Positions 6,644 through 35,698 are shown, numbered from the stretch's first letter. The stretch: DNA of 64,000 bases from a bacterium (GCA_021788015.1 JAJYLD010000001.1:17581-81580); one strand, 5' to 3'. A program made the numbers and translations. Notes: a model not told the origin generated them from the sequence alone.

Positions 6644-6681
6644 ATTGTAACAAACACTCTTTTTTTTCAGTATTATATTGT

Positions 6682-7065: not shown

Positions 7066-7157
7066 AAACAAATTAAATCCCGCGATTCTTTCGCAAATAC
7101 GCAAACACGATAAAACGGCCGTTTGCGGGAACGCATAATCTGGAAAGGAGGCGAAAT

Positions 7158-7526: not shown

Positions 7527-7528
7527 TT

Positions 7529-8175: not shown

Positions 8176-8178
8176 TTT

Positions 8179-8291
8179 AATCTCAAAACGCGAATGTCAA
8201 AACTCAAAATTGCAACTCAAAACTAAAAATTATAAAAAGTTTTAAGTTTTTAGTTATGATTTTGCGTTTTTGAGTTTTAAGATTTGAGATT
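8179..8291. repeat. AT-rich palindromic intergenic element (caaaactcaaa/tttgagttttg family), copy 1
   Basis: aatctcaaaacgcgaatgtcaaaactcaaaattgcaactcaaaactaaaaa ... tttttagttatgattttgcgtttttgagttttaagatttgagatt. The arms are imperfect reverse complements. Related copies lie at 26981 and 38001. Confidence 0.6.
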
Positions 8292-8370
8292 TTGGCCCGA
8301 AGAAGGTGTTTATCTCCCGTTAAAAAACTGCTATAATATATAAAAGTAAGCAGGTTTTAATTTTTATCAC

Positions 8371-9741
8371 ATGCCTAAAAAAATTTTAGAAGAAATCGTG
8401 GAAATTCCCGCCATAACCCTGGAGAAAGGGGTTGAAATTTCCGAAAAAGTCGAAAAGACGGTGGTTAACAAAAAGCCGTTTAAAATCGCCGAAGAATATT
8501 GGGAAACGCTCGGTCCGGGTTTGACGACAGGAGCGGCCGACGATGATCCCTCCGGAATCGCGACTTATTCCCAGACAGGCGCTCAATACGGATTTCAGCT
8601 TCTGTGGCTGGCGGCGTTTACTTTTCCTTTGATGGCTATCGTTCAGGAAATGTGCGCCCGGATCGGAATAGTAACCGGAAGAGGGCTGGCCGCCAACATA
8701 AAGCGCTATTTCCCCAAATGGTCTCTTTATACGGTCGCCTCTTTGCTGTTTTTTGCGAACACTTTTAATTTGGGAGCCGATCTCGGAGTCATGGCCAGGG
8801 CGACGGAACTGATTTTCCCCAAATTGGGTTTTGTTTTTACCGTTATCGGCTTCGCTTTATTGAGCCTGCTTTTGCAGATCTTTACGACTTACGCCCGCTA
8901 CGCGAAATATCTTAAATATCTCGCCCTTGTTCTTTTTTCTTACGTTTTTTCCGCCATCAGTTTGCATTTGAATTGGGGCGAGGTTTTAAGGCACGGCCTT
9001 ATTCCTTCTTTAAAATTTTCAAAAGAACAGATATTTTTAGTTTGCGCCATTTTAGGCACGACAATTTCGCCTTATCTTTTTTTCTGGCAAACTTCGCAGG
9101 AAGTCGAGGAAGAAATTTTGCAAGGGAGAAAAACCGTAAAAATGCGCCGCGAAAAAACTTCGAAAAAAGAAGTGAAAAAAATGAGGACGGACGTATGGTC
9201 GGGAATGTTTGTTTCCAATATAGCCATGTTTTTTATCATTACCGCGTCCGCCGGCGCCTTGTTCGCTCACGGCATTACCAATATTTCCACCGCCGAGCAA
9301 GCGGCTTTGGCCTTAAAACCGTTTGCCGGCGAACTGGCCTATCTTTTGTTCACGATCGGAATAGTCGGAGTCGGCATGCTCTCGATTCCGACCCTGGCCG
9401 GTTCCGCTTCTTACGCCTTGTCGGAAAGCTTCGGATGGAAGTGCGGGCTTTATAAAAAACTGAAAGGAGCTTATGATTTTTACGGAGTAATCATCATAGC
9501 CATGCTGGTCGGCCTCGCCATAAATTTTATTCATCTCGATCCGATCAAGGCTTTGATTTACTCGGCGGTCGCGAACGGAATTATCGCCCCGGTAGTCTTA
9601 TTTTTTATCATTAAAATAAGCAGCAATAAAAAAATAATGGGAAAGCATGCGAGCGGTCCGGTGACAAAAAGTTTGGGTTGGCTCATCACGGGAATAATGG
9701 CGGCGGCCGGAATCGCGGCGATTGCGGGATTGATTTTTTAG
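8371..9741 (+). CDS. NRAMP-family divalent metal cation transporter
   Basis: 456 aa, polytopic. Motif GPGLTTGAADDDPSGIATYSQTGAQYGFQLLW is typical of the Nramp/MntH family. Confidence 0.8.
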   Translation: MPKKILEEIVEIPAITLEKGVEISEKVEKTVVNKKPFKIAEEYWETLGPGLTTGAADDDPSGIATYSQTGAQYGFQLLWLAAFTFPLMAIVQEMCARIGIVTGRGLAANIKRYFPKWSLYTVASLLFFANTFNLGADLGVMARATELIFPKLGFVFTVIGFALLSLLLQIFTTYARYAKYLKYLALVLFSYVFSAISLHLNWGEVLRHGLIPSLKFSKEQIFLVCAILGTTISPYLFFWQTSQEVEEEILQGRKTVKMRREKTSKKEVKKMRTDVWSGMFVSNIAMFFIITASAGALFAHGITNISTAEQAALALKPFAGELAYLLFTIGIVGVGMLSIPTLAGSASYALSESFGWKCGLYKKLKGAYDFYGVIIIAMLVGLAINFIHLDPIKALIYSAVANGIIAPVVLFFIIKISSNKKIMGKHASGPVTKSLGWLITGIMAAAGIAAIAGLIF

Positions 9742-21945: not shown

Positions 21946-23739
21946 ATGGAAATACGAAATATAGCTATAATAGCGCATGTTGATCATGGCAAAACAACTT
22001 TAACCGACGCGTTGATGCGGCAGACCGGGATGGCTGCCGAAGGCGTGAGTATGGATTCGAACGCTTTGGAACAGGAGCGGGGAATTACCATTTATTCAAA
22101 AAATACATCCGTTTTTTACAAAGATACGAAAATCAATATCGTCGATACCCCGGGTCATGCCGATTTCGGTTCCGAAGTCGAGCGCGTTTTAAGATCGATT
22201 GATTCCGTTCTCTTGGTGGTGGACGCGCAGGAAGGACCGATGCCCCAGACGAAATTCGTTTTGAAAAAATCGCTTGAGCTCGGTTTAAAACCAATCGTGG
22301 TGATAAACAAAATCGACAAACCCGCCGCCCGTCCCGACGCCGTTCATGAACTTGTTTTTGAATTATTCATGGACCTCGGAGCGAATGACGGGCAACTCGA
22401 TTTTACGACGGTTTACGCGATCGCAAAGCGGGGAATCGCAAAAATGAAGCTGGAAGACGATTCCAAAGACTTGGCCCCGCTACTCGACACGATTTTAAAA
22501 GAAGTGAAACCGGCTTCGTCGGACGAACTCGCGGATAAGCCGCTTCGCGCCCAGCCGTTCAATTTGGGTTATGACAATTTTCTCGGGCGGCTTGCCATCG
22601 GGAGAATTTACGAAGGAAAAATAAAAAGCGGCGAAAATGTTTTTGTCAAAAAAAATAACGGCGAAGCGAAACAGGGGAAAGTCGTAAAACTTTTTACTTT
22701 TCACGGACTCGACAAAAAAGAAGTCGACGAAGCGTCCGCCGGTGACATCGTCATGATCGCGGGGCTCTCGGACGCTTACATCGGCGACACTATTTGCGCA
22801 TCGCCGGATCAGGAACTTTTGCCGTCGATTGAAATAGACGAGCCCACGATTTCTTTGAATTTTTTAGTAAACAATTCCCCTTTTGCCGGCCGCGAAGGAA
22901 AGTTCGTCACTACTCGCCAAATTAAAGAAAGACTGGAAAAGGAACTCGAAATCAATGTCGGCTTGCGAATCGATTTTTCTTCATCCGACCATTATAAAGT
23001 TTATGGCCGCGGCGAACTACATATCGCCATTTTACTTGAAAATATGAGGCGCGAAGGTTATGAATTGCAGGTTTCGCAGCCGCATGTAATTATTAAAGAG
23101 GAAGGCGGACAAAAATTGGAACCGTTTGAAGAGGCGACAATCGATATTCCCGACGAAATGTCCGGAGTCGTGATTGAAAAAATGTCAAAACGAAAAGGAA
23201 CCATGACCGAGATGCGGCCGGAGCATGGTCATACGCGTCTGGTTTTTGAAATTCCGACGCGTGGGCTTTTGGGTTATCGCGGAGAATTCACGATCGATAC
23301 CCGCGGCGAAGGCATCCTTTGCACTCGGGTTATCGGTTTTAGGCCGCATGTCGGCGAGATCGAAAAGAATTATTTAGGCTCAATGATTTCCATGGCGACC
23401 GGCAAGGCTTTGGCGTTTTCGCTTTGGAATTTGCAGGAACGGGGGACTTTATATATCGGACCGAACACGGACGTTTACGAAGGCATGGTCATCGGCAATG
23501 TTTCGAAAGGAAATGATTTAACCGTCAACCCGATTAAGGGCAAACAGCTTACAAACATCCGCGCTTCCGGGTCGGACGAAGCGATTCGTTTGACTCCGCC
23601 GCTCGAACTCTCGCTCGAACGCGCTCTGGAAATTATGAATGATGATGAATATCTTGAAATCACGCCAAAAAGTATCCGCTTGCGCAAGCAGTATTTGACG
23701 GAAGTTGAAAGAGTGAGAGCGTTTAGAAAAAATTCGTAG
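21946..23739 (+). CDS. typA: translational GTPase TypA/BipA
   Basis: Start at MEIRNIAIIAHVDHGKTTLTDALM. G-motifs DTPGHADF and NKIDK. Full-length similarity pattern to BipA. Confidence 0.95.
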   Translation: MEIRNIAIIAHVDHGKTTLTDALMRQTGMAAEGVSMDSNALEQERGITIYSKNTSVFYKDTKINIVDTPGHADFGSEVERVLRSIDSVLLVVDAQEGPMPQTKFVLKKSLELGLKPIVVINKIDKPAARPDAVHELVFELFMDLGANDGQLDFTTVYAIAKRGIAKMKLEDDSKDLAPLLDTILKEVKPASSDELADKPLRAQPFNLGYDNFLGRLAIGRIYEGKIKSGENVFVKKNNGEAKQGKVVKLFTFHGLDKKEVDEASAGDIVMIAGLSDAYIGDTICASPDQELLPSIEIDEPTISLNFLVNNSPFAGREGKFVTTRQIKERLEKELEINVGLRIDFSSSDHYKVYGRGELHIAILLENMRREGYELQVSQPHVIIKEEGGQKLEPFEEATIDIPDEMSGVVIEKMSKRKGTMTEMRPEHGHTRLVFEIPTRGLLGYRGEFTIDTRGEGILCTRVIGFRPHVGEIEKNYLGSMISMATGKALAFSLWNLQERGTLYIGPNTDVYEGMVIGNVSKGNDLTVNPIKGKQLTNIRASGSDEAIRLTPPLELSLERALEIMNDDEYLEITPKSIRLRKQYLTEVERVRAFRKNS

Positions 23740-23744
23740 GTTTG

Positions 23745-23963
23745 TTATTCTTTATTATTCTTTTTTCGTTTTATCATTTTTCTCATCACCGCTCCTCCGA
23801 TTAACGCGGTTGCTCCGGCAACCGCGTTTTTGATTTTCTTTTTCTGGCCCTCGTCCAAGTTATCGTATTTTTCTTTTGCCACCTTTAAAATTTCTTTCAA
23901 GTCTTCGGCGAGAGCGGAAATGTCATCTTTGATTTTTTCGATTTTGACTTTTTTGGCAGGCAT
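23745..23963 (-). CDS. small coiled-coil protein with C-terminal TM helix (YtxH-like?)
   Basis: 72-aa ORF, convergent with typA. KNAVAGATALIGGAVM is a hydrophobic segment. Family uncertain. Confidence 0.45.
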   Translation of the reverse strand: MPAKKVKIEKIKDDISALAEDLKEILKVAKEKYDNLDEGQKKKIKNAVAGATALIGGAVMRKMIKRKKNNKE

Positions 23964-24090
23964 ATGATAAATATTAATTTTTCTATTTTAGCATAAATTT
24001 GCATTTTTGGAAAGCAAAATGCCCATTTCTTGACTAATGCTGAATTTTGTATTTAAAATTAATTATAAATATAAAGGATGGAGGGCGTTC

Positions 24091-24423
24091 ATGACGACTG
24101 CAACTACGGATAAGAAACAGACTGCAGAAGAGAAACGGGAAAAATGGAAAGATGAACTGATCCCTTTGCTGAAGAGGCTGCAAAAAAACACATCGACAAG
24201 CATCCTCCTCGATCCGGAGGAAAAAAAGGAAAAGCTTTCGTTCATTGAAGGCCTCATTGCCGAGGTAGAAACAAATCCTTCGACGGGCCGCTGCAGTTGC
24301 GGCAAGTTCATTGAACCCGGCAGGATAATAGCCAGGCTCAAGTTAAATGGGGATTGTGCGATATGCGCCCGCAGAAAAAGCAAGCGGGCCATGTCTTCCG
24401 GCAAAAAAATATACGCCCTCTAA
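24091..24423 (+). CDS. small zinc-ribbon protein, TraR/DksA-like C-terminus
   Basis: ATG at 24091 behind the RBS ggatggaggg. The C-terminus CSCGKFIEPGRIIARLKLNGDCAICARR (CxC...CxxC) resembles a TraR/DksA finger. Confidence 0.5.
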   Translation: MTTATTDKKQTAEEKREKWKDELIPLLKRLQKNTSTSILLDPEEKKEKLSFIEGLIAEVETNPSTGRCSCGKFIEPGRIIARLKLNGDCAICARRKSKRAMSSGKKIYAL

Positions 24424-24436
24424 ATGCATTTTCTTT

Positions 24437-24465
24437 AGACCTGAAATTCATCTCAGGTCTTTTTT
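24437..24465 (+). terminator. intrinsic terminator
   Basis: AGACCTGA-AATTCATC-TCAGGTCT followed by T5, then a TTGACA promoter-like hexamer at 24468. Confidence 0.8.
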
Positions 24466-24622
24466 CTTGACAAAAAACAAAATTTGTTTTTAGATGGAAT
24501 TAAACACAAGGGGGTTGGTGGGAAAGAATAAAGAGGAAAGGAGGTTATTTAGACTCAACTCCATGTTCATTTTCATTCTGGGGGATTAATTTCCAAGTTC
24601 ATCTACTCACAGAGGAGGCGTC

Positions 24623-25018
24623 ATGTCTGGAAAAAAGAAAACATGGGAAGAGGAGGCTTTGGAAATCCTTCTGTCTCTGAAAAAGAAGGAAGAAGCGGGA
24701 TTAAATAATCTCCTTGAACAGGAGAGAAAGGAAAGAAGCGAAAACCCGCGTCAGGAATTCGAACCTGACGAAATGGTCTCTCAGACCGTTCCTCTGGATG
24801 ACATAATATCCAGAACAAGGAAAAGGGTCGAGGCCATTAAAACGGCCATCGAGAGACACAAAAAAGGTAATTACGGTATCTGCCAGGGCGAAGGCTGCGG
24901 CGAGCAGATAGACATTAAAAGGCTCAAAGCCCAACCTTTTGCTCTACTCTGCCTTAAGTGCCAGGGTGAAAAAGAAAAAAAAGAAGTCCACAAAAGGATT
25001 AATCCCGCCTACGCATGA
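24623..25018 (+). CDS. TraR/DksA family C4-type zinc finger protein
   Basis: RBS agaggaggcgtc. C-terminus YGICQGEGCGEQIDIKRLKAQPFALLCLKCQGEKE matches the TraR/DksA finger (..CG..I...RL.A.P.A..C..CQ). Confidence 0.7.
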   Translation: MSGKKKTWEEEALEILLSLKKKEEAGLNNLLEQERKERSENPRQEFEPDEMVSQTVPLDDIISRTRKRVEAIKTAIERHKKGNYGICQGEGCGEQIDIKRLKAQPFALLCLKCQGEKEKKEVHKRINPAYA

Positions 25019-25219
25019 TCCCCCTCGAAAGAGAGGTGACCCTAGGCTCCCATCTCCAAAAATGGGTGTCCGCGCGCGGGTCTCTCTCGCAGGGGATCAT
25101 CCCTGTCCTTCCAAAAAAATAAAAGGGCGAGTCCAGTTCCCACGGACCCGCCTTTCTCTTTTTTAATTTAATCTCGAAAGAGATTTTTTTGTTAGACGCT
25201 GCGCTGGACCCTGCTTTTT

Positions 25220-25310
25220 GCCCGCCTGTCCGGTAGGCAGGTAACTAAAAAGTAAGCAAAAAGTTTCGGGGCTCCAACCTGCCTGCCGCCTGCCTGTCCG
25301 ATAGGCAGGC
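25220..25310. repeat. two GC-rich REP-like hairpins (GCCTGCCT-AYCGGAC-AGGCAGGC)
   Basis: The copy at 25288-25310 is a perfect 8-bp stem. The copy at 25220-25242 is degenerate. Track ORF 25163..25357(-) is just their translation (PTGQAG/RTGRRQAG). Confidence 0.55.
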
Positions 25311-25450
25311 TCAATTCCGCCCCCAAACCCCGCGGTGTTCTGAATACCGATTTTCAAGTCACAACTTTTATTTTTGCGTTATGTGAAAGATAATTTTGCC
25401 CAAAATGTAAAAATAAGGTATAATAAAAATATTAAACGTTACTCTTTGTT

Positions 25451-26527
25451 ATGGACAAGGAAAAAGTCATAAACATAAGCTTCACGACCGGAACCGTAAT
25501 TAAAATAGTTTTGATTTTTTTGCTTCTTTATTTTCTTTATTTAATAAGCGACATTCTCGCCATCCTTTTCGTCTCTTTGATTTTGGCGAGCGCGTTCGAC
25601 CCTTGGGTGGACTGGATGCAATCCAAAAAAATTCCCCGAGCGGCGGGGATTCTCTTTATTTATCTTGTTTTGGCCATAGTCATAGGTTCGTCGATTTATC
25701 TCATCATTCCTCCCATTGCCCAGCAAATCGGCGAGCTTTCGAACGATTTTCCAAAGTATCTAGATAAAATAATTTCGGAATACAGGACCGTCCAACAATT
25801 CACCGTCCAGCACAGCATTCTAAACAGTATCCGCGAGAGTTTGGGAAGCGTGAGTTCGAATTTGCAAAAAGCCGCCACCAGCATCTTCTCGACCGTAACC
25901 GGAATATTCGGAGGCATTTTTTCTTTCTTTTTGATCGTGATTATAACTTTTTACATGGTTGTCGAAGAGAACGCGATAAAAAAATTGATTTGGTCGGTCG
26001 CGCCCTCAGAACATCAGCCCTATTTGATACATCTCGTCAATCGCATGCAGAAGAAAATCGGTCTTTGGCTTCGAGGTCAGCTTATGGTAAGTCTCGCGAT
26101 TTTTCTTTTGGACTTTATCGGTTTGACCATTTTGGGAGTGAAGTACGCTTTGATTTTGGGACTGATCGGCGGAATCGCCGAAGTCGTCCCTTACGTCGGT
26201 CCGATTTTGGCTGCCATTCCCGGCGTGTTTATCGCTTTTACCCAAGCGCCGATTTTGGCTTTGTTCGCCGCGGTTTTGTATGAAATAGTCCATCTTATCG
26301 AAGGAAATATCTTGGTTCCGAAAATTATGGAGAAAGCCGTCGGTTTGAATCCGATTGTCAGCATCAGCGTATTGTTAATCGGTTTCAAGGTGGGCGGAAT
26401 CGTCGGCGCGGTAATTTCGATTCCGGTGGCGACGGCGGTAAGCGTTTTTGTGAAAGATATTTTCGATCATAAAGCCGCCGCCGAAAAAACCTTTGACGAC
26501 ATTGAAAAAAACATAGACACGTTTTAA
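25451..26527 (+). CDS. AI-2E family transporter (PerM/UPF0118)
   Basis: 358 aa, polytopic, with the usual AI-2E layout including ...GLIGGIAEVVPYVGPILAAIPGV... and ..EGNILVPKIM... Confidence 0.85.
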   Translation: MDKEKVINISFTTGTVIKIVLIFLLLYFLYLISDILAILFVSLILASAFDPWVDWMQSKKIPRAAGILFIYLVLAIVIGSSIYLIIPPIAQQIGELSNDFPKYLDKIISEYRTVQQFTVQHSILNSIRESLGSVSSNLQKAATSIFSTVTGIFGGIFSFFLIVIITFYMVVEENAIKKLIWSVAPSEHQPYLIHLVNRMQKKIGLWLRGQLMVSLAIFLLDFIGLTILGVKYALILGLIGGIAEVVPYVGPILAAIPGVFIAFTQAPILALFAAVLYEIVHLIEGNILVPKIMEKAVGLNPIVSISVLLIGFKVGGIVGAVISIPVATAVSVFVKDIFDHKAAAEKTFDDIEKNIDTF

Positions 26528-26566
26528 AGTTGAATCACGAAAACAAATCGCATAAATCGGAAATAT

Positions 26567-26977
26567 ATGCAATATGAGATTTTAGAACACCCCGGCGATA
26601 TTAAAATCCGAATTTTTGGAAAAGACGATAAAGAACTTTTTGCAAACGCCGCGCTCGGAATGACATCGTACATTTATGGACAAAAAATAACAGAGGACAG
26701 GCAGGGGCCTGTCTTTTTTGAAACCGCGGAAATTCGTTCGCCGGACAAGGAAGCGTTGCTCGTAGACTGGCTTTCGGAAATTTTGTACAGGAGCGAAACA
26801 AACAAACGCGCTTATACCGATTATGAAATTTTGGATATAAAAGAAACTGATTTAAAGGCGAAAATAGGTTCGATTGAAGCAAAAGCGATTGAAGATATAA
26901 AAGCGGTCACCTACAGCGGATTGAAAATAGAAAAAGAAAAAGACCATTGGGAAGCCGAAGTGGTATTTGATATATAA
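26567..26977 (+). CDS. archease
   Basis: 136 aa. The start MQYEILEHPGDIKIRIFG and the end ...VKAVTYSGLKIEKEKDHWEAEVVFDI are typical of archease. Adjacent to rtcB. Confidence 0.85.
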   Translation: MQYEILEHPGDIKIRIFGKDDKELFANAALGMTSYIYGQKITEDRQGPVFFETAEIRSPDKEALLVDWLSEILYRSETNKRAYTDYEILDIKETDLKAKIGSIEAKAIEDIKAVTYSGLKIEKEKDHWEAEVVFDI

Positions 26978-26980
26978 AGA

Positions 26981-27080
26981 AGTCAAAACTCAAATGTCAA
27001 AAGTCGAAATCACAACTCAAAATTCAAAAGTTTTTAGTTTCGCGATTTAATTTTAAGTTTTGCGTTTTGAGATTTGAGTT
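26981..27080. repeat. AT-rich palindromic intergenic element (caaaactcaaa family), copy 2
   Basis: agtcaaaactcaaatgtcaaaagtcgaaatcacaactcaaaattcaaaag...ttttaagttttgcgttttgagatttgagtt. Shares long word blocks with the copies at 8179 and 38001. Confidence 0.6.
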
Positions 27081-27087
27081 AATATTT

Positions 27088-28476
27088 ATGAAAATTTTAG
27101 ATTTCATCCAAGTTAATCCGTATCTTTTTGAAATACCCAAGTCGTACAGATCGGATATGCGCGTACCGGCGCGGATTTACATCAAAAAAGAAATGCTCGA
27201 GGCGGTTTTGAAAGAAAGGGCAATCGAACAGCTTTTGAACGTCGCCACCTTGCCGGGAGTGGACCATTTCGCGCTTGCCATGCCCGATATACATGAAGGC
27301 TATGGCTTTCCGATCGGCGGGGTGGCCGCGATTCGCGCGCGTGACGGAGTAATTTCGCCGGGCGGCGTAGGATATGATATAAACTGCGGTGTCCGGTTGC
27401 TTTTAAGCGAACACGGTCATGACGAGCTGAAAGAAAAAATTTTGCCCTTGGTTAATCAAATGCAGCGCGACGTTCCGTCGGGAGTGGGGCGGGGTGGGAA
27501 AGTGGTTTTAAAAGAAAGCGAATCGGACGAGATTTTAAATACGGGCGCGGAATGGGCGTTGAAAAACGGATACGCGTTCGGAGAGGATTTGAAAAATATC
27601 GAAGAGAACGGCAATTTTAAAATCGCGGACGCGAAATTTGTTTCGGACAAAGCGAAAAAAAGAGGGGCGGACCAACTCGGCACGATCGGTTCGGGAAATC
27701 ATTTTTTGGAAATCCAAAAAGTCGAAGAAATTTACGACCGGGAAACGGCGGATAGATTCGGAATGTTTTTAAATCAAATTACGGTCATGATCCATACCGG
27801 ATCGCGCGGCCTCGGCCATCAGGTATGCACGGATTATGTTCGCGTCATGAACGAAGTCGTGCCGAAATATAAAATCGTTTTGCCGGACCGGGAACTCGCT
27901 TGCGCGCCGTTTCAATCGGAAGACGGACAAAATTATTTTCGCGCCATGGCCGCGGCGGCGAATTTCGCCTGGGTCAACCGGCAGATGATCACGCATTTAG
28001 TCAGAGGAGCGTGGGAAAGAGTTTTGAAAGATGGAAAATCGCTGAAACTGCTTTACGACGTCGCGCATAATATCGCGAAATTGGAAAAATACAACGGCCG
28101 CGAGTACATTGTCCATCGCAAAGGAGCGACGCGCGCTTTCCCGGGTCAGCCCGTAATTATTCCTGGATCGATGGGCACGGCTTCGTATGTCCTTGCCGGG
28201 ACGGAAACGGCGATGCGAGAGACTTTCGGTTCAAGCTGTCATGGCGCGGGGCGGGCGATGTCGAGAATGAAAGCGAAAAAGACAATTGATTATAATGAGT
28301 TGAAACAAGATTTGGCGAAGAAAGAAATCATATTCCGGGTCGGCTCGGCGAAAGAGATGCTCGAAGAGGCGCCGCAAGCCTACAAGAATATAGATGATGT
28401 AGTGGACGTTGTCCATGGCGCCGGTATCGCGAAAAAGGTGGCGAAGTTGAAACCGTTGGCGGTGATTAAGGGGTGA
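27088..28476 (+). CDS. rtcB: RNA-splicing ligase RtcB
   Basis: ATG at 27088. Motifs MPDIHEGYGFPIGG, GYDINCGVRLL, GSGNHFLEIQ, HTGSRGLGHQV, GSSCHGAGR. Confidence 0.95.
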   Translation: MKILDFIQVNPYLFEIPKSYRSDMRVPARIYIKKEMLEAVLKERAIEQLLNVATLPGVDHFALAMPDIHEGYGFPIGGVAAIRARDGVISPGGVGYDINCGVRLLLSEHGHDELKEKILPLVNQMQRDVPSGVGRGGKVVLKESESDEILNTGAEWALKNGYAFGEDLKNIEENGNFKIADAKFVSDKAKKRGADQLGTIGSGNHFLEIQKVEEIYDRETADRFGMFLNQITVMIHTGSRGLGHQVCTDYVRVMNEVVPKYKIVLPDRELACAPFQSEDGQNYFRAMAAAANFAWVNRQMITHLVRGAWERVLKDGKSLKLLYDVAHNIAKLEKYNGREYIVHRKGATRAFPGQPVIIPGSMGTASYVLAGTETAMRETFGSSCHGAGRAMSRMKAKKTIDYNELKQDLAKKEIIFRVGSAKEMLEEAPQAYKNIDDVVDVVHGAGIAKKVAKLKPLAVIKG

Positions 28477-28652
28477 AGATTAGGTGTAGGTTTGTAGGTT
28501 TTTAATTTAGATCTCGTTATGTGTTACGCGTTATATGAAGATCTTGATTTATTTTTCAATTTGAGTTAATTTATTTAAAGATTAAACGAGGAGGTTTGGT
28601 CTTTTTATTTTTGAAAAATAAATATCCTGTAAGGATAATCCAAGGAGGAAAG

Positions 28653-28820
28653 ATGAAGAGGGTAAAAAGATATCCGCTTTTACAAGAAGCAGTTGACCGG
28701 AATCTGTTTAAATGCTGGCAAGCGGTCCCTCTTCACATCAAAGATATTTTAAGACACCCCGAATTATACACAGGGGATGCAAAGAAAATCGCTCTAAGAG
28801 AAGCGAAAAATAAATTGTAA
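28653..28820 (+). CDS. small hypothetical protein (55 aa)
   Basis: ATG at 28653 behind a strong RBS (ccaaggaggaaag). Followed directly by a terminator. No family recognised. Confidence 0.45.
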   Translation: MKRVKRYPLLQEAVDRNLFKCWQAVPLHIKDILRHPELYTGDAKKIALREAKNKL

Positions 28821-28847
28821 ACCGCTATTAAAACCAGCGGTTTTTTT
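28821..28847 (+). terminator. intrinsic terminator
   Basis: ACCGCT-ATTAAAACC-AGCGGT followed by T7. Confidence 0.75.
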
Positions 28848-28963
28848 ATAATTTAAAAATTTGGAAATAATTCTTAAATTCGCTCGAATTAAAATGAAAC
28901 AAAACCCCCAACCCCCTTTGTTAACAGGGGGGGGTTAAATAAAAAAAGGCAGACGATTCTGCC

Positions 28964-29977
28964 TTATGCGGTTATGTGCATTTCCTCTCTTTGAAAGTCA
29001 ACGACATGCTTCCCGACAAGTCTCTCGAAGATTGCGAGGTATCTCGCGGTCGTATCCGTAATGACTTTATCGGGAATCGGAAGGTTCGCGATGAAAGCGA
29101 GGTGTTCTTCGTTTTGCGGATCAAGAGTATGAATACCGACCGATCCGAAAGGAGTCCAGACCATTTTGCCCCATTGCCTTGCCGGTTCTTTGTCATAGCC
29201 GGAAGGCGATTTTTTCTGCTTCTGGGCCTCTTTATATTCTTTCAGGTCCCAGAGGCGGGAAGAGTCCGGGGTCAAGACCTCGTCCGCGAGGATGTAATTG
29301 ATTAACCCGTTTAGGATGAATCTGCCCCACTCGAACTTGGTGTCCGCGATGACTATGTCCTTACGCAAGGCGCAATCAGAAGCCCTGCTGAATATATCTA
29401 TCGAAAGCTTTGCTAGTTTGGGATCAACACTGTTAAAGTGGACATGCTCATCATGGCCAATTTGCGCCTTTGTGGTCGGCGTAAAAATCGGGCCGCCAGG
29501 AATGCGGGAGCCGTCGTGCAAACCGGGCGAAAGCTCTATTCCGCAAACCTGCCCGTTTTCTTTATATGATTTCCATCCCGATCCCGTGAGGATAGCGCGG
29601 ACTATGCATTCTTTGTCGACCATATCCAGTCTCTGCACCACGATGGCGCGCTTCTGTAATTCGGGGTCACCGCGGAGTTCGTAAGGCAGGAATTCGTCGA
29701 TACCGGCGCCGTAGGCCATTAGATGGTTGTCTATATAGGCGAGAACGCCGGTAAGCCAGAAGATTGTCATTGCTGTCAGAACCTCGCCCTTGAACGGAAC
29801 GAGACAGTTCAGGACGACATCAAAAATGCTCAGCCGTTCCGTAGCCAGGACGAGGTTGGTGGGGTATTTTGGGATCGCATAAGTATCCCTGACTTTCCCC
29901 TGATGAGTGCGCGGTAAGTATTTGAGAAGTTTTCTGCTCAAATCCGTTTCACGTACTACCTGTGGTATTTTTGCCAT
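28964..29977 (-). CDS. purC: phosphoribosylaminoimidazole-succinocarboxamide synthase (SAICAR synthetase), long form
   Basis: 337 aa. HQGKVRDTYAI...LVLATERLSIFDVVLNCLVPFKGEVLTAMTIFW matches PurC (GKVRD.Y...DR.SAFD....IP.KG..L...S.FWF). Terminator AAGGCAGA-ATCG-TCTGCCTT followed by T7 on the minus strand at 28937-28962. Confidence 0.85.
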   Translation of the reverse strand: MAKIPQVVRETDLSRKLLKYLPRTHQGKVRDTYAIPKYPTNLVLATERLSIFDVVLNCLVPFKGEVLTAMTIFWLTGVLAYIDNHLMAYGAGIDEFLPYELRGDPELQKRAIVVQRLDMVDKECIVRAILTGSGWKSYKENGQVCGIELSPGLHDGSRIPGGPIFTPTTKAQIGHDEHVHFNSVDPKLAKLSIDIFSRASDCALRKDIVIADTKFEWGRFILNGLINYILADEVLTPDSSRLWDLKEYKEAQKQKKSPSGYDKEPARQWGKMVWTPFGSVGIHTLDPQNEEHLAFIANLPIPDKVITDTTARYLAIFERLVGKHVVDFQREEMHITA

Positions 29978-30515
29978 TACGTCGCTTCCTCCTTTTTTCT
30001 TTTCGCCAATTCGGCGGCTTCCCTTATAGTCCTCGTTTTGGTCAATTTCGGAGTCGGGAGTTTAATTTCGGGAAGTTTGCCGTTCACCGCAAAGTGGCAA
30101 GCGCGTCTGAATCCGTCCTCGCCGATAAAGTCGCCCTGGTGGTCTTTGTATACGACCTGCGTTCCCGGTACTTTCTTTATACTCAGGATCGCGGCCAGCG
30201 TATCCTCTTCGGTTTTACCCTCAAAGGCGACACCGATCACTATCGTTTTTTGTTACGTACCATATATCTAAGGTACGCGTCGTCCGCGCCTGTTAATTGA
30301 TTGGCCATCCCCGCGCCGGTTACCAGAACATCGATATCGTCCATGTTCCAGAGATGCTCCCTTACTTCGTCCATGTTCCTATGAATACTGGCGGTTATGA
30401 CCGCCTTCACTTTTGCGGCGCCGACTACATCGGCTTCGTCAAGAAAACGCAAACCTTGAGCGCACTGCGGCAAATCGGAATCTGAACCGATCATGACTAA
30501 GATTTTTCTGATCAT
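29977..30515 (-). pseudogene. PurE/AIR-carboxylase-family gene interrupted by a frameshift in an A6 run
   Basis: N-terminal ORF: MIRKILVMIGSDSDLPQCAQGL...VLVTGAGMANQLTGADDAYLRYMVRNKKR*. Family sequence resumes one base out of frame as (KT)IVIGVAFEGKTEEDTLAAILSIKKVPGTQVV. The junction is AACAAAAAACGATAGTG (A6 at 30246-30251). Confidence 0.7.
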
Positions 30516-30624
30516 GAACACCCCCTTATGTATTTCTAAAACTAAAAAGAGCGAGTTAAAAACTCCTCCTGCATTTAATCTATAGTAAATTAGAAAAAAA
30601 TGCAAGAAAAAAGGCTTTGAAAAA

Positions 30625-31242
30625 TCAAAGCCAAAGACTTAATGCGAAAAAAGTGACATTAACAAGAAAATGCGAAGTCAAGGCGACCAAGAAGCCGTAT
30701 TTAACGAAAATAAAAGACAGAAACAAACCAATGAAAAAATGAGGAGTCACTACGAAAACATTTCTATTCGATTTCTCAAAATTATTAAGATGAGCCAGGC
30801 TCCAGACAAAATTGTATCCAAGCATGAGGCAATAAAACTGCGGTACGCCGGAAAAAAGAGAAAATCTCGGCACCCAGCCCAAAAAAATTCCTCTTGCGCC
30901 TTCTTCAATACAATTTGAACCGAAAACATTAAGAAAGAAACAAAGTAGATCCGATTTTTTCACTGAAGCTTCTTTCAGAAGTTCTCCAATTTTTGTCTCT
31001 TCGGTCGGTCCGATCAATCCTTCAATCATATTTCCCAAAGAAAGAGCGATAATGACCATAAGAAAGACAAGCCAGAGGACGTCATTTTTGAAAATGAAAA
31101 AAGTTAATTTCACTCTGACGATCTCTTTCGCTCCGCCGAGAAGAAATTTTGCCATATCCGCCCGGTTGAACAGGATTATCGTTATGACAAGAAGGTAAAA
31201 TGGAACCGTGAAAAAACGAAACGCTTTATTTTTAAAGGACAT
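30625..31242 (-). CDS. CPBP-family (CAAX/Abi) intramembrane protease
   Basis: 205 aa, polytopic. Motifs CIEEGARG (EExxxR), WSLAHL and LTSHFLVN (HxxxN). Confidence 0.75.
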   Translation of the reverse strand: MSFKNKAFRFFTVPFYLLVITIILFNRADMAKFLLGGAKEIVRVKLTFFIFKNDVLWLVFLMVIIALSLGNMIEGLIGPTEETKIGELLKEASVKKSDLLCFFLNVFGSNCIEEGARGIFLGWVPRFSLFSGVPQFYCLMLGYNFVWSLAHLNNFEKSNRNVFVVTPHFFIGLFLSFIFVKYGFLVALTSHFLVNVTFFALSLWL

Positions 31243-31322
31243 GTTTTTCCTCCCGTGTTTTTTTATTATTTTAAGTTATATTTCCGAATTGTCAAATAAA
31301 AAAAGCGGGTTTTTGTTCCGCT

Positions 31323-31421
31323 CTACTTTTTTGCGCGTTTGGAACGCGCTTTTTTACTTTGTTTCCTTTTGTTTTTCTTGTAGCCGCCACCGCATTTTTT
31401 CATGACAGCATATTTTTTCAT
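31323..31421 (-). CDS. 32-aa highly basic peptide ORF (not in track)
   Basis: ATG at 31421, 10 nt after GAGGAG. MKKYAVMKKCGGGYKKNKRKQSKKARSKRAKK*. Followed by terminator AGCGG-AACAAAAAC-CCGCT and T7. Confidence 0.35.
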   Translation of the reverse strand: MKKYAVMKKCGGGYKKNKRKQSKKARSKRAKK

Positions 31422-31428
31422 TTTTTAC

Positions 31429-32490
31429 TCAGCTCCTCTGGATTTTATCGAGCTCTGCCGGCTTGAATACTCCACGGTCTGTGATAATCCGGGTTATGTA
31501 TTTCGCCGGGGTCACATCGAAGCCGAGATTTACGGCCTCGGCGCCTTCGGGAGCGATCGCCTCTTCCCGGAAGTGCGTCAATTCTTTGGGAGACCGTTCC
31601 TCGATTTTAATCTCGTCTCCTGAATTAAGATTGAAATCGATTGTACTGGTCGGCGCCGCTACATAAAATGGAATGCCGTGCTCCTTGGCGAGGACGGCGA
31701 TCTGGTACGTACCGATTTTGTTCGCCGCATCGCCGTTCGCGACCACGCGGTCGGCGCCCACGACGACAACGTTGATTTTACCCTGGCGCATAAGAGCTCC
31801 GACGGCGCTATCCGCGACAAGAGAAGCGGGCACGCCCTCTTCAATGAGCTCATACATGGAAAGCTTTGAACCCTGATTCAGCGGGCGCGTTTCCGTCTGG
31901 AAAACATACTCCACCCTACCCGTACGGAAACCTCTAACGATAATGCCGAGAGCCGTACCTCCGCCGCCCACGACGGCGAGATTGCCCGTGTTTCAGTGAT
32001 GCAAAACACACGCGCCTTCGGGTAAAATCCCGAGGCCGTATGCTGAGATCGCTCGGTTTACTACTATATCTTCCCGTGCGATCGCAATGGCCTCGTCAAG
32101 AACCGCCTCCTTGATCTCAGCCGCGGTTTTCGTTTTGCGCGCTCTTTCCATAACTCTATCCAGACATTCGAACAGGTTCACCGCCGTCGGCCTCGTAGTC
32201 AATAATTCATCGGCCGCTGTCTCGAGATAGCGCAGAAGAAAAATGGCGTCTTCAGTCTCAGTCTCCTCCGAAGCGAGCACCATTCCGAACGCCCCCGCGG
32301 CTCCGATTGCCGGCGCGCCCCTGACGGCCATGTCTTTTATGGCTATGGCTACGTCTCCCCATGCGCGGCAAATAAGATACTCTGTTATTCCGGGCAACTT
32401 ACGCGTGTCCAGAATTTTTAGGATGTGTCCATCGTACGGTACGCCTCTCCACGTGAGCTGCAAAGTAGTTGAGGCAAATTCTGTTTGCAT
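31429..32490 (-). CDS. MtnA/eIF-2B-family sugar-phosphate isomerase (MTR-1-P or ribose-1,5-bisphosphate isomerase type) with in-frame UGA at the active-site Cys codon
   Basis: Track ORFs 31993-32535 and 31429-31971 are colinear in one frame: ...MAVRGAPAIGAAGAFGM...EGACVLHH-TGA-NTGNLAVVGGGGTALGII...ETRPLNQGSKL...VVVGADRVVANGDAANKIGT. The TGA is at 31993-31995. ATG at 32490 lies behind GGGGGTGA. Confidence 0.75.
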
Positions 32491-32634
32491 TTTCACCCCC
32501 ATTTTAGATTTAAAAAAAGAGCCGATCCAAATCAAGCTCCTCCTTTAAACTTAATCTAAGGCAAAATTAAAAATAATGCAAGGCGGGACGGAATAATAAA
32601 AAAGTTCGCGTCTAGCGAACTTGGATGCGCGGGT

Positions 32635-33867
32635 TTAACCCGCGTGTTTTCTGAAGCCCCGGTGTTCGGGGGCGAGGAAAGCGACAGACAGGCCGGCATC
32701 GGCGAAGAGCTGTTTTACCTCGTCCTTGTGCTGGCCATCACAAGGAACGACACCGCCCTTGCATCCGGCGTCAATGAGCAGCTCCGGCCCCTCGCGGCGG
32801 TCGGATTGGGAAACGAGACTGGAAATCTCGGAAAGGTAATTTAAGGCCTCTCTTTTCCCATCTCCGGTTTCCGCTGCGAGTGCGTCTTCCGCGGCTGCGT
32901 TTAAACCGCCGATTCTGTCTATTAATTTGTCAAGATCAGAAAGGTTGCCCTTAGCGTACGGGAAAAATGCATCGGAAGCAAACAGTGAATCCTTTGGATC
33001 ATGTCCGGCTCTATTCGCCCGTTCAAGGCAAAGGCGGACGCAGGCGATTCTGTCCTGCTGGCCGCAGCCCAAACCGATGAGCATCTGGTCCTTGGCGAGC
33101 GCGACTGTATTGCTCGATGCGAACCAGCAGCAGGCCCAGGCGATGATCAATGTCCCGAAATCAGTAATATTGGGTTTGCCTCTCATCGCAAGGGCAGGTA
33201 CATAATTGGTCCAATCAACCACCTCACTCGGAGTAAGATAAAACCCCGGAGCTCGCTGGACAAGCATGTCGGCGCCGATGCTCTTCCGTTCCCAAAGTCC
33301 GGGAAACGGCCTGGGATCAAGTAGCGCTTTATTGGCTATCAAACGTCTTTTTTCTCTCTTGCCGAGGAGCTCGATTGCTTCCTTTGAAAATGACGGCGCG
33401 AGTATGAGATCGAGTCCCCATTTTTTGCGGCCGATATCCGGGTCGTTCGGCACGGTAAAAAGTCCATCGGCAAGCCCCTCATCAATGGCAAAGTTGGTAA
33501 CCACCTCTCCGCCCATGACCGCGACAGAATCGCCCGTAAGCGCTTTGCGTATGGCCTTGGCTGGGTTGTCCCAATCATAAGCCGCGCCGCACGGATTGCC
33601 GTGCTTGCCGGCGACCGTGATATAAGGCATCTTGCCGGATGCTGCTTGCCTGAACGTTTCGGCGATGGTGCGCAAGATCGTGGTAATCTGGTATCCGTCG
33701 GCCATGGAAATATAGCTCGGCTCGCCGGAAACGATCTTAAATTTCGACATGGCCAACGGATCTCTAACCCCTTCAATCGACACAAGTGAAGCTGGATTTT
33801 GATACCGGTTCTCCGCGTAAGCGAGCTCCTTCGGAGTTCCTAACTTTATGTGGTTCGTTTTAGACAT
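32635..33867 (-). CDS. purH: AICAR formyltransferase (PurH C-terminal domain as a separate gene)
   Basis: Start MSKTNH at 33867 overlaps the stop of the upstream gene (ATGTCTAA). Motifs [59 protein letters not shown]. Confidence 0.8.
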
Positions 33868-34474
33868 CGGTTCCATCTCCGTCCTCGCCCATGGCCCGCG
33901 CGAGATAATCGGCAATCGTTCCGTCGTACCGAGACATCAGTTCGAAGACTTTTTTGGCAAGCCCGAGCCTGGTTTCTCTGTCGACCTGTCCGTTGTCGCT
34001 CATCTTTTTGAGAATCATATCGTAGTCATGCGGATCGACCACGACCACCACGCTTTCGAAGTTCTTGGCCGCGGCGCGAATCATTGTCGGCCCGCCAATG
34101 TCGATATTCTCGATGGCATCCTCGAATGTGCAGTTCGGTTTCGCGATCGTTTTCTCGAACGGGTAGAGGTTCACGACAACCATGTCGATCATCCCGATTC
34201 CGTGCTTTGCCGCTTCCGTCATATCTGCCTGCACATGCCTGCGCGCGAGTATGCCGCCGTGGATTTTCGGGTGAAGCGTCTTCACTCTCCCGTCCATCAT
34301 CTCGGGGGAGCCTGTGTAAGTGGAAACATCGATGACAGGAATGTCGGCGTCTTTAAGAGTCTTTGCCGTGCCGCCGGTCGAGATGATCTCGACACCCATT
34401 TCCGAAAGTCCCCGCGCAAAGTTCACAAGCCCGGTTTTGTCCGAAACACTGATTAACGTTCTTTTAATTTTCAT
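33860..34474 (-). CDS. purH: IMP cyclohydrolase (PurH N-terminal MGS-like domain as a separate gene)
   Basis: [35 protein letters not shown]...[25 protein letters not shown]...[16 protein letters not shown]. Confidence 0.85.
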
Positions 34475-34506
34475 ACGCCCTCCATTTCAAAATGTCTTTA
34501 CAAACA

Positions 34507-34746
34507 TCACCCTTCTTTTTTTAAGGAATCCAATTCTTTCGCTTCCATGATGCAGGCGATCCACCCGGGATCAAGAATTCTACTATTCGGATCTCTTGCC
34601 CAGAATTTATCGCCTGACTTTCCTTGATACCCCTCTTTTTTTAAAATCTCTTCCGCTTGCGTTCTCGAGCAAGGCCCCCTTATATTTAAGGTTTCCATGA
34701 CTGCAGTGAATTTGTACGCAATGATAAACAATTTTTCTATTTCCAT
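34507..34746 (-). CDS. small hypothetical protein
   Basis: 79-aa ORF with a GAGGTGA RBS-like sequence just upstream. No family recognised. Confidence 0.4.
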   Translation of the reverse strand: MEIEKLFIIAYKFTAVMETLNIRGPCSRTQAEEILKKEGYQGKSGDKFWARDPNSRILDPGWIACIMEAKELDSLKKEG

Positions 34747-34879
34747 GTATCACCTCATGTTTTATTTTAAAGACCAAAAGAGCCGGATCAAAAAGATCGG
34801 CTCCCCCTTAACTAAGGTAAGATTAAAACAGAAACGGAAAAATTGCAAGAAAAAATCCAATTATCTAAATTGGATTATT

Positions 34880-35128
34880 TTATGAAGCGGTGTAATAAAC
34901 CAGCTCGTTTTTGTCGGGAAGTGGCAATTCCGTTAATTCGAGTTCTTTGACAAAGAGCAAAACGTCTTTTTTAATGGCATTTTCAATCAGGAATTCGATC
35001 GGTCCCTTTCCGGCATTGGCCAGTAATATTATTTTTTTTTCGTTTTTAAGAAAGTATAAAAAGTACTCAACCTTTTTGTCACCGAGTTTGTCAAGGATTT
35101 CCTTCAGGACTTCTTCTTTTTTTGTCAT
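34880..35128 (-). CDS. small hypothetical protein
   Basis: ATG at 35128 (MTKKEEVLKEILDKLG...) behind AAGGAGGGG. No family recognised. Confidence 0.45.
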   Translation of the reverse strand: MTKKEEVLKEILDKLGDKKVEYFLYFLKNEKKIILLANAGKGPIEFLIENAIKKDVLLFVKELELTELPLPDKNELVYYTAS

Positions 35129-35157
35129 CTGACCCCTCCTTATTATCAAAGTTTTGT

Positions 35158-35348
35158 TAGTGCCAAAAGAGGGAATCGTCCCGCCATTCGCTTCGCGGGC
35201 GGGATCGCTCGCTCACACGCTCGCGAAACTCATCTGCTCTGTGGGCATAGTGGAATCGAACCCTCATGAGATTGCTCTCACACGATTTTGCCCCGGCACC
35301 AATAAGGTGCGGGGCACCCTGAACCCTTTGTGGTTCAGGGTGAGTCGT
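35158..35348 (-). other. decayed partial duplicate of tRNA-Leu (anticodon stem to 3' end) split by GC-rich hairpin insertions
   Basis: 35252-35289 is identical (38/38) to 35373-35410 of the intact tRNA. 35341-35348 (TGAGTCGT) matches 35410-35417. 35158-35178 (tagtgccaaaagagggaatcg) matches the tRNA 3' end 35359-35379. The intervening segments form hairpins. Confidence 0.7.
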
Positions 35349-35361
35349 TTTTAATTTCTAG

Positions 35362-35445
35362 TGCCCGGAGAGGGAATCGAACCCTCATGAGATTGCTCTC
35401 ACACGATTTTGAGTCGTGCGCGTCTGCCAGTTCCGCCATCTGGGC
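35362..35445 (-). tRNA. tRNA-Leu (anticodon CAA), type II with long variable arm
   Basis: Minus strand: GCCCAGATGGCGGAACTGGCAGACGCGCACGACTCAAAATCGTGTGAGAGCAATCTCATGAGGGTTCGATTCCCTCTCCGGGCA. Anticodon loop CTCAAAA and T-arm GAGGG-TTCGATT-CCCTC. One A-C mismatch in the acceptor stem. CCA is not encoded. Confidence 0.85.
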
Positions 35446-35448: not shown

Positions 35449-35698
35449 TTAAAGCAAGCTTTTTCTTAGCATTAATTTTAATGTATTTTTTCCTTTTGAT
35501 GTTTTAAAGTAAGTTTCTCTTCTTATGGCATCCTCTTTGTTTAAAAATGCTTCGTAAAAAGTTAAAATTAGCGGACGTCTATTTTTTGGATTTCACTTTT
35601 CCGTTTTTGTGTTCGGCAAATCTTCTTTTTAAATCATCGGTTCTTCCTATGTATAATTTAAAATCTTTCAGACTTTTTAAAATATAAACATGATACAT
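35449..35698 (-). pseudogene. GIY-YIG (UPF0213) nuclease gene with frameshift in an A6 run
   Basis: MYHVYILKSLKDFKLYIGRTDDLKRRFAEHKNGKVKSKK* stops in the run (plus-strand T6 at 35582-35587). The family continues in the +1 frame as KNRRPLILTFYEAFLNKEDAIRRETYFKTSKGKNTLKLMLRKSLL*. Confidence 0.75.

Follow-up and report, generated by a model that had tools for sequence, protein, structure and literature searches.

Is a G+C-rich block of purine genes that abuts a tRNA gene a recently acquired island, or can it be an old possession of its host that merely differs from its surroundings? This question is raised by the region 28596-35360 of a 64,000-nucleotide (nt) stretch of bacterial DNA (GCA_021788015.1 JAJYLD010000001.1:17581-81580), hereafter the window. 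A preliminary description, made from this sequence alone, viewed the block as a horizontally acquired module that entered at tRNA-Leu, converts 5-aminoimidazole-4-carboxamide ribonucleotide (AICAR, or ZMP) to inosine monophosphate (IMP) and is now partly decaying. Our analysis favors another explanation, to which we give a probability of about 70%: the block would be the resident late-purine cluster of the lineage, covering the steps from 5-aminoimidazole ribonucleotide (AIR) to IMP and now eroding between the gene of an AI-2E transporter and the tRNA-Leu(CAA)-parA-parB genes.

The window contains mostly plus-strand genes and is typical of a small genome of Patescibacteria (candidate phyla radiation, CPR). 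Its backbone includes LigD, TypA, an NRAMP transporter, ParA/ParB, cysteinyl-tRNA synthetase (CysRS), a type IV secretion coupling-protein-like gene, RtcB and archease. The largest minus-strand block of these 64 kb extends from 28.6 to 35.4 kb. Read on the minus strand from 35445 to 28964, it shows tRNA-Leu(CAA), two partial copies of this tRNA, two small open reading frames (ORFs), purH-N and purH-C, then an mtnA-type gene with one in-frame TGA, a gene for a membrane protein of 205 amino acids (aa), a purE-like gene in two frames and purC. Profile searches confirmed the families assigned in the preliminary description, i.e. purC, a gene of the AIR carboxylase family, AICAR formyltransferase (AICARFT), IMP cyclohydrolase (IMPCH) and an MtnA-type isomerase. 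They also agree with its statement that the purine set is incomplete, since purB is a relic, purE is frameshifted and no early-step genes lie nearby.

The gene order of relatives was read from the contigs that carry homologues of PurH-C and PurC. Three of these relatives, L052, L037 and L046, encode ParA proteins 86%, 83% and 79% identical to that of the window, respectively, and ParB proteins 69-73% identical. In L052, the order is parB, parA, tRNA-Leu(CAA), purC and the AI-2E transporter gene. Hence, both flanks of the block are conserved in this relative, with purC alone between them (identities to the window of 73% for ParB, 63% for AI-2E and 53% for PurC). L046 displays parB, parA, tRNA-Leu(CAA), purH-N, purH-C, purB and purC, and L037 displays parB, parA, tRNA-Leu(CAA), an element with a serine recombinase, purH-N and purH-C, after which the contig ends. 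The presence of purine genes beside tRNA-Leu(CAA)-parAB in three relatives indicates that this is the ancestral state of the group. Conserved synteny, which the preliminary description had itself named as evidence against an island, was thus found in L037, L046 and L052, on both sides of the block in the latter. The same description had proposed to look for best hits outside the host lineage. The closest homologues of PurH-C are 45-59% identical and all the named ones belong to Patescibacteria (Parcubacteria, Moranbacteria, Buchananbacteria). The top matches of PurC come from Patescibacteria and Doudnabacteria (53-54% identity), followed by Myxococcales and Acidobacteria (about 51%). Together with a compositional signature that is shared across the clade (see below), these results do not bear out a recent horizontal acquisition through tRNA-Leu.

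We infer that an ancestor carried a purE/purC/purB/purH module at this site and that its descendants differ by loss and gain inside the zone. Different parts would have been lost in different relatives, L052 keeping only purC and L046 keeping purH-N, purH-C, purB and purC. The mtnA gene and the gene of the 205-aa membrane protein (a probable divergent CPBP protein) were looked for at this site in L037, L046 and L052 and were not found there, so these two genes could be later gains.

The compositional contrast that first drew attention to the block is nevertheless real. Over its whole length, the block has a G+C content of 0.479, against a mean of 0.421 (standard deviation 0.011, maximum 0.452) for 874 windows of equal length elsewhere. 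Its mtnA-purH core (31429-34474) reaches 0.537, whereas values elsewhere do not exceed 0.474. In tetranucleotide composition, the block lies at a distance of 0.239 from the rest of the window (mean 0.132 and maximum 0.188 for stretches of equal length elsewhere). Therefore, both tests agree with the preliminary description that the block is G+C-richer than its flanks, and identify it as the richest and most deviant stretch of the window. The block is however a mosaic: purC, mtnA and purH have G+C contents of 0.50-0.56 (0.56-0.68 at third codon positions), whereas the purE-like gene (0.44) and the membrane protein gene (0.377) are lower.

The strong ribosome-binding sites reported for nearly every gene of the block were also retrieved. 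A Shine-Dalgarno (SD) core of at least 5 nt precedes seven of the nine independent starts of the block, and the remaining two have GAGGA or GGGGGTG. By comparison, such a core was found for about 7 of 54 backbone ORFs, although the best start was chosen generously (Fisher p = 1.8e-4). Backbone starts have an A/T-rich upstream sequence that often ends in ...AAAT-ATG, and ligD, typA, parA and the NRAMP gene do lack an SD, as initially described. The presence of an SD does not simply track G+C content, since rtcB, typA and the ORFs at 747-2774 (HlyD-type) and 3593-4816 (MacB-type permease) have G+C contents of 0.47-0.49 and no SD.

Is this signature a mark of recent arrival? We compared seven loci of Patescibacteria whose neighbourhoods differ (L037, L044, L046, L048, L052, L053 and L054). 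An SD core of at least 5 nt, usually AGGAGG, precedes all 20 purine genes of these loci, against 14 of their 72 neighbours (Fisher p = 1.7e-11). Neighbours without SD include recA, efp, ssb, rpsF, dnaE, dnaB, parA, parB, tig and rnhB, and nusA has a weak GGTGA. Furthermore, the G+C content of the purine genes exceeds that of their neighbours in seven loci out of seven, by 0.017-0.105. The gene orders, fusions and contexts of the module vary, as seen in L044, L048, L053 and L054. Since the signature accompanies purine genes in seven differing neighbourhoods, it belongs to the purine module and is not a mark of recent arrival.

These data suggest that two classes of initiation signal exist in these Patescibacteria. 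SD-independent initiation with a minority of SD-led genes is known from Bacteroidetes, and the situation here is similar in that most genes have A/T-rich upstream sequences (...AAAT-ATG) without SD and a minority have a canonical AGGAGG. It differs in that the genes of one pathway, purine synthesis, are consistently SD-led in seven genomes. A search of one paper library on purine modules and SD usage in Patescibacteria retrieved no report of such an SD-led purine class. This class suggests either two initiation regimes with an assignment at the level of the pathway or a long-lived foreign signature. Apart from this, one of the compared loci (L048, 8195-9592) encodes a PurC-PurE fusion of 465 aa whose PurE part has SGHK and SNGLGP motifs. 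We take these motifs to be of the class II type, in which case the protein would have a PAICS-like architecture.

The border of the block next to parA/parB is formed by tRNA-Leu(CAA) (35361-35445, minus strand; found by ARAGORN, 52 bits with the Rfam tRNA model). The fragments of this tRNA, which had been considered as an integration landmark, do exist: copy 1 (35252-35290, minus strand) is an exact duplicate of 39 nt, from the anticodon arm to the T arm, and copy 2 (35158-35187, minus strand) is a degenerate 3' end of 30 nt (77% identical). However, both are located no more than 200 nt away from the tRNA, in the interval that separates it from the purine genes, so the block is not bracketed by them. 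No other copy of tRNA-Leu was found near 28.6 kb or elsewhere in the window, and profile searches detected no recombinase domain among the ORFs of the block, in agreement with the previously noted lack of an integrase. In L037, a large serine recombinase of 502 aa is located, together with three ORFs, directly after tRNA-Leu(CAA) and before purH-N (5780-9100), which indicates that the same tRNA is an active integration site in a relative. The two fragments would thus best be explained as scars left by small integrative elements for which this tRNA is the target. On the other side of the tRNA, a GIY-YIG nuclease gene (35449-35698, minus strand) is frameshifted by one extra A in an A6 run (35582-35587). 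Its product after repair (82 aa) matches positions 1-76 of the 78 of PF01541 (E = 8e-15). An intact GIY-YIG gene is found in L046, a few kb from the purine genes. In addition, two near-perfect hairpins (cacccugaacc...gguucagggug and ccccgcacc...ggugccgggg) occur within 35291-35360, between tRNA-Leu and copy 1, and could be a terminator or the end of an element.

What remains of the purine pathway in the block? The purC gene (28964-29977, minus strand) is intact. It is preceded by an AGGAGG SD and encodes a 337-aa synthetase of succinyl-AICAR (SAICAR) that matches PF01259 with 155 bits and NF010568 with 247.5 bits. It is followed by a terminator-like hairpin (28946-28965), and the L052 gene is its positional orthologue. 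By contrast with purC, the purE-like gene (29977-30515, minus strand; PF00731) is broken: its N-terminal part occupies 30240-30515 and its C-terminal part extends to 29977 in the -1 frame. A codon-for-codon comparison with L053 and L044 indicates that it lost one A from an A7 run, now A6 (30246-30251). The window reads AAC AAA AAA CGA TAG TGA TCG G where L053 reads CGG AAA ACG TCA GTG ATT GGC. Once repaired, the protein aligns across the junction with PurE from T. maritima (1o4v) and with the PurE proteins of L044 and L053, both intact (169-170 aa), and its motifs GSDSD, SIHR, GAGMANQLTG and VIGV align with 1o4v and with PurE of L044. Its scores are low, with 30 bits for TIGR01162 (cut-off 149.6) and, after repair, 43 bits for the Pfam family (positions 1-104 of 148).

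The purB gene had been reported as missing. The window does lack an intact copy, but a C-terminal relic persists in the last ~40 codons (28695-28817) of orf74 (28596-28820, plus strand), as detected by tblastn with PurB proteins of Patescibacteria (E = 4e-7 with L044, 0.004 with L054 and 0.035 with L046). No other purB-like segment was found by tblastn in the 64 kb. The view that the block is partly decaying is therefore well founded, with a purB relic, a 1-nt deletion in purE and the TGA of mtnA; no similar break was seen in the profile-scanned backbone genes of the window.

Unlike purE and purB, purH is not a casualty of this decay, although it is split. The purH-N gene (33860-34474, minus strand; GGAGG SD) is intact and encodes a 204-aa IMP cyclohydrolase with an MGS-like domain (PF02142) that matches TIGR00355 over positions 1-193 with 302 bits and is 66% identical to its L037 counterpart. 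The purH-C gene (32635-33876, minus strand) encodes a stand-alone AICAR formyltransferase of 413 aa (PF01808, positions 65-310, 119 bits). It has its own GAGGA SD and ATG, overlaps purH-N by 17 nt in the +1 frame and is followed by a terminator-like hairpin (32602-32622). The two domains are thus not on one polypeptide but on two overlapping ORFs in different frames. Since the match of purH-N to the PurH model ends at position 193 and that of purH-C begins at about position 199, the break falls at the boundary between the IMPCH and AICARFT domains. The junction has a 17-nt overlap in the window, a 14-nt overlap in L037 and a 3-nt gap in L046, with an SD and an ATG each time, and purH-N ends shortly after a conserved ...Y(D)xxIAxYL motif in all three. 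Moreover, about half of the PurH-C homologues of the clade are stand-alone proteins of ~400 aa, some of them without an adjacent gene for an MGS domain. A frameshift pseudogene was rejected because of the SD and ATG at the junction in three genomes and the many stand-alone homologues. Judging from these gene structures, purH is a conserved pair of cistrons, predicted to start each from its own SD and ATG.

PurH-C keeps the motifs KHGNPCG and SDAFFPY when aligned to solved PurH structures, AGKHGNPCG aligning with KHANPCG of PurH from M. tuberculosis (3zzm). Its scores (113 bits for a 402-bit equivalog cut-off; 62 bits for NF005492, with a cut-off of 415) are so far below the cut-offs that its substrate and its formyl donor are only predicted from the family. 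Domain-separated PurH is also known from some archaea. Like split PurH of the NF005492 type, the protein described here is cut at the domain boundary (about residue 200) and retains KH-x-NPCG. It differs in that the halves are adjacent, overlapping and apparently translationally coupled, in a bacterial clade that also contains fused forms.

The block thus resembles the late purine genes of other bacteria (purE, purC, purB, purH; AIR to IMP) in that the same enzyme families are grouped in one neighbourhood, and related Patescibacteria carry purB-purH-purC-purE or a similar set. It differs by the lack of early-step genes nearby, a purB relic, a frameshifted purE, a PurH made of two proteins, low scores relative to the NCBIfam equivalog cut-offs (113 vs 402 bits for AICARFT, 30 vs 150 bits for the PurE-like protein) and several transcription units instead of one operon. 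The linear route from AIR to carboxyaminoimidazole ribonucleotide (CAIR), SAICAR and AICAR would be broken here at the PurE and PurB steps, which would leave PurC as an orphan. If PurB and PurE are lost (unless copies exist elsewhere), the sole self-contained chemistry is the conversion of AICAR (ZMP) to formyl-AICAR (FAICAR) and IMP by the two PurH proteins. The AICAR-to-IMP activity that had been proposed may therefore be what is left, as a remnant of a longer route and not as an imported salvage module.

The mtnA gene (31429-32490, minus strand), which encodes an MtnA-type isomerase of the IF-2B family, raises a question of its own. It consists of two pieces in the same frame and has SD-like sites (AGGAGG, GGGGGTG) upstream. 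The two pieces score 252 and 118 bits with TIGR00512, against 131 and 44 bits with the e2b2 model TIGR00511. The best solved relatives of the product are methylthioribose 1-phosphate (M1P) isomerases (217-299 bits, the highest being 1t9k with 299), against about 120 bits for ribose 1,5-bisphosphate (R15P) isomerases. Of the two enzyme types that had been proposed, MtnA is thus retained and the R15P type, with its lower profile and PDB scores, is not. No partner of MtnA (MtnK/MtnP or MtnB, or DeoA and RuBisCO for the R15P route) was found among the profiled genes of the window. The best matches of mtnA, 49-53% identical, come from Firmicutes and Chloroflexi, and there is no named Patescibacteria among the top 120.

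The in-frame TGA (31993-31995, minus strand) lies, according to the alignment, exactly at the codon of the invariant catalytic cysteine of the H-C-N-(A/T)-G motif. In an alignment of nine sequences including this gene, mtnA carries the shared residue at all 90 invariant columns, before and after the TGA. It also has the conserved Asp of the GADR motif, for which we assume a catalytic role as in M1P isomerases. This TGA is the only in-frame stop of its kind in a real gene of the window. Given that mtnA offers 109 other single-base routes to a stop codon, a random nonsense mutation would fall on the catalytic codon with a chance of about 1%. A 7-bp hairpin (CGCCGUC-GUG-GGCGGCG) starts 14 nt after the TGA and is partly built by a one-residue insertion (GGGG) absent from homologues. 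A genome-wide reassignment of UGA (code 4 or 25) was rejected, since 17 of the 63 long ORFs end in TGA and only mtnA has an internal one. The hairpin did not stand out statistically as a selenocysteine insertion sequence (SECIS), with z = -0.93 and, against resampled synonymous codons, p = 0.15, and it has no Rfam match.

A metagenome collection was scanned by pattern for MtnA genes whose catalytic Cys codon is TGA. The one match (L051, 118-1167; ENA UOOM01000388) comes from a Clostridiaceae-like organism of a fermentation metagenome. This gene reads TH-TGA-NAGALATVGYGTALG and is followed by a class II aldolase gene (mtnB-like). A hairpin, UACCGUA-GGU-UACGGUA, is located 17 nt downstream of its TGA. 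Its cluster contains at least eight distinct N-terminal variants, all of exactly 156 aa, and several C-terminal variants. Four full-length calls read the codon as W (TGA under code 4). The six variants of the N-terminal cluster account for 31 contigs, and Cys occurs at this position in none of the members listed. Other genes of L051 are intact under the standard code. That TGA is kept across variants indicates that the gene, with its UGA, is under purifying selection. Going by this pattern, a selenocysteine form of MtnA probably exists in this Clostridiaceae lineage. A literature search for MtnA as a selenoprotein found no report, which is not proof of novelty. We rejected a specific kinship of the two TGA-bearing mtnA genes, as they are 44% identical, i.e. 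less than either is to Cys-type homologues. The occurrence of TGA at the catalytic Cys of MtnA in two unrelated lineages suggests that a non-redox isomerase exists in a selenoprotein form.

How do the competing explanations of the whole block compare? That it arrived recently at tRNA-Leu as an island for AICAR-to-IMP salvage, and is now decaying, appears very unlikely to us. This would account for the highest G+C content and the most deviant tetranucleotide profile of the window, for an SD-rich block in an SD-poor genome and for the largest minus-strand block in a window dominated by the plus strand. The block also shares with tRNA-linked genomic islands its atypical composition, its adjacency to a tRNA with partial copies, its variable content among relatives and the presence of a serine recombinase at the same tRNA in one of these relatives (L037, outside the purine genes). 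However, it differs from such islands by tRNA copies that do not flank it, with no copy at the far end, by the lack of an integrase and by a purine core present at the same site in all three relatives, with both flanks in L052. Moreover, the best matches of PurH-C and PurC are Patescibacteria and the signature is common to purine genes in seven loci of different contexts. An older origin deserves more weight, although we consider it doubtful: the late-purine module could be an old acquisition, or a cassette moving among Patescibacteria, whose SD and G+C content are a retained foreign signature and not a functional adaptation. Such an origin would fit a module that already occupied this site before L037, L046 and L052 diverged. 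An SD and G+C contrast that is uniform across seven loci, irrespective of their surroundings, and the differing orders, fusions and contexts of the module (L044, L048, L053, L054) speak for it. So does PurH-C, which is about equally distant (53-59% identity) from all its Patescibacteria homologues whatever the relatedness of the genomes, and so do the Myxococcales and Acidobacteria matches of PurC, close to the best ones from Patescibacteria. Yet protein identities of 50-60% imply a time span in which a foreign signature would be expected to weaken, and its persistence therefore suggests selection; in addition, the named members of the PurH-C clade are Patescibacteria only, and SD does not simply follow G+C in the window. 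Some observations also weigh against a resident, eroding cluster. The clade-wide signature would fit an old transfer into Patescibacteria as well. Among syntenic relatives, the purine proteins (PurC 37-53%, PurH-C 56-58%, PurH-N 37-66%) are more diverged than ParA/ParB (69-86%), PurC of L046 is of a different, ~300-aa type, and xenologue replacement may have occurred inside the zone. The position of the mtnA TGA is improbable by chance and this gene has no other damage. Lastly, the sequence covered is 64 kb of a 361.7-kb contig, and copies of purB and purE or selenocysteine machinery may lie elsewhere. A resident purine cluster caught during reductive evolution in a genome of Patescibacteria is nevertheless the explanation we retain, and it is more ordinary than an acquired island. 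Hence, a G+C-rich, SD-rich and tRNA-adjacent block should not by itself be taken as evidence of transfer.

The lesions themselves can be read in other ways. They would be sequencing or assembly errors, or consensus calls of a minor variant, in genes that are in fact intact (purE A6, GIY-YIG A6 and mtnA TGA), a reading that we regard as highly improbable. Two of the three lesions are single-base changes in homopolymer length and the sequence is a metagenome assembly without close relatives for comparison. However, an independent Logan assembly (run SRR13170411) matches the window with 100% identity over 13,305 bp (21977-35281), purine-cluster lesions included. For short-read data, A6/A7 runs and a substitution would be atypical consensus errors, an error cannot explain the purB relic, and the other profile-scanned genes of the window have no such breaks. 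For purE, it is scarcely credible that a programmed -1 ribosomal frameshift or a transcriptional slippage on the A run produces regulated amounts of full-length PurE. The frame would be restored exactly by a -1 shift on C-AAA-AAA-C, a 0-frame stop follows two codons later, and a long imperfect hairpin begins just downstream. Nevertheless, purE of L044 and L053 are intact single ORFs without an A7 run or a shift at this site, C AAA AAA is an imperfect heptamer and only about 1 nt, instead of the 5-9 nt expected, separates the run from the hairpin; a programmed frameshift was rejected on these grounds. Six A residues are also too few for efficient transcriptional slippage. As for mtnA, its TGA is most likely a recent nonsense mutation, which we consider more likely than selenocysteine, and it would then be one of several recent lesions in the block. 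The other reading, that the window encodes a functional selenoprotein M1P isomerase with the downstream hairpin of the coding region as SECIS, is rather unlikely. In its favor are the TGA exactly at the catalytic Cys, an otherwise intact gene, a 7-bp stem with a G-first 3-nt loop at 14 nt after the UGA, and the Clostridiaceae mtnA with a TGA at the same codon and a similar hairpin. In these respects, mtnA resembles bacterial selenoproteins with Sec/Cys pairs such as fdhF, which have a UGA at a Cys position of an intact gene and a G-first-loop hairpin at a similar place. It differs from them in that MtnA is a non-redox isomerase, the hairpin is unremarkable and the gene lies in a reduced genome of Patescibacteria without visible selenocysteine machinery: no selenocysteine genes or tRNA-Sec were seen within the 64-kb window, where tRNA-Leu is the only tRNA found. 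We know of no selenocysteine use in Patescibacteria, and a literature search for selenoproteins in Patescibacteria/CPR found nothing relevant. Furthermore, plain lesions affect neighbouring genes, mtnA is a singleton at 90% identity, and conservation of the TGA was seen only in a Clostridiaceae lineage whose mtnA is not specifically related. It is also possible that mtnA is a selenocysteine-type gene that came from a selenocysteine-using donor and is untranslatable here. If the selenocysteine reading were true, the mtnA of the window would be a selenoprotein in a reduced genome of Patescibacteria and an apparently undescribed selenocysteine form of MtnA.

Among the other genes of the block, the one located between mtnA and purE (30625-31242, minus strand; GGAGG SD) encodes the 205-aa membrane protein, a probable divergent member of the CPBP (Rce1-like) group. 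It had been designated a CPBP protease. No direct Pfam match was obtained, even at E <= 1, but 8 of the 10 nearest of its 156 homologues match PF02517 over the homologous region, which upholds the family at one remove. The motifs EEGAR, SLAH and HFLVN, read by eye, would stand for the CPBP motifs EExxxR, FxxxH and HxxxN. Most of these homologues have ~400 aa, with an extra C-terminal half devoid of Pfam match, and the window copy corresponds to the N-terminal half alone; it could be either a short natural form or a truncated one. The two small ORFs, of 82 aa from the ATG (34880-35128, minus strand; AGGAGG SD) and 79 aa (34507-34746, minus strand; GAGGTGA SD), have no family match and no homologue at related loci. 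In total, 10 proteins were looked up among ~15 billion proteins, and each is a singleton at 90% identity; the longest contig on which they occur measures 361,715 bp.

Co-transcription of the genes of the block had also been proposed. It is not borne out, as a terminator-like hairpin is found after each of purH-C, the CPBP gene and purC, and a promoter-like site (TTGACA-16-TAAAAT, 31268-31295) precedes the CPBP gene. A 32-nt repeat (78% identical) is found at 30575-30606 and 32551-32582, upstream of the purE-like gene and mtnA, respectively. On the coding strand it reads cTTGCAT-N17-TAGATT, which resembles a shared promoter. Rfam searches at gathering and permissive thresholds detected no ZTP, purine, PRPP or SAM riboswitch and no SECIS family in the block.

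Elsewhere in the window, two tandem matches to a c-di-GMP-II-GAG riboswitch variant (RF03169; 12808-12900 and 12965-13053, plus strand) are located upstream of ligD (13309-15831), with scores of 61.6 and 43 bits for a gathering score of 40. An archease and RtcB pair (26567-28476, plus strand) is located between the AI-2E gene and the purB relic and is missing at the same site in L052, the closest relative. RtcB, which has no SD, shows the highest G+C content among backbone genes (0.494). Its relatives from a pattern-limited scan of a genome collection are about 50% identical and almost all archaeal (Bathyarchaeia and others).

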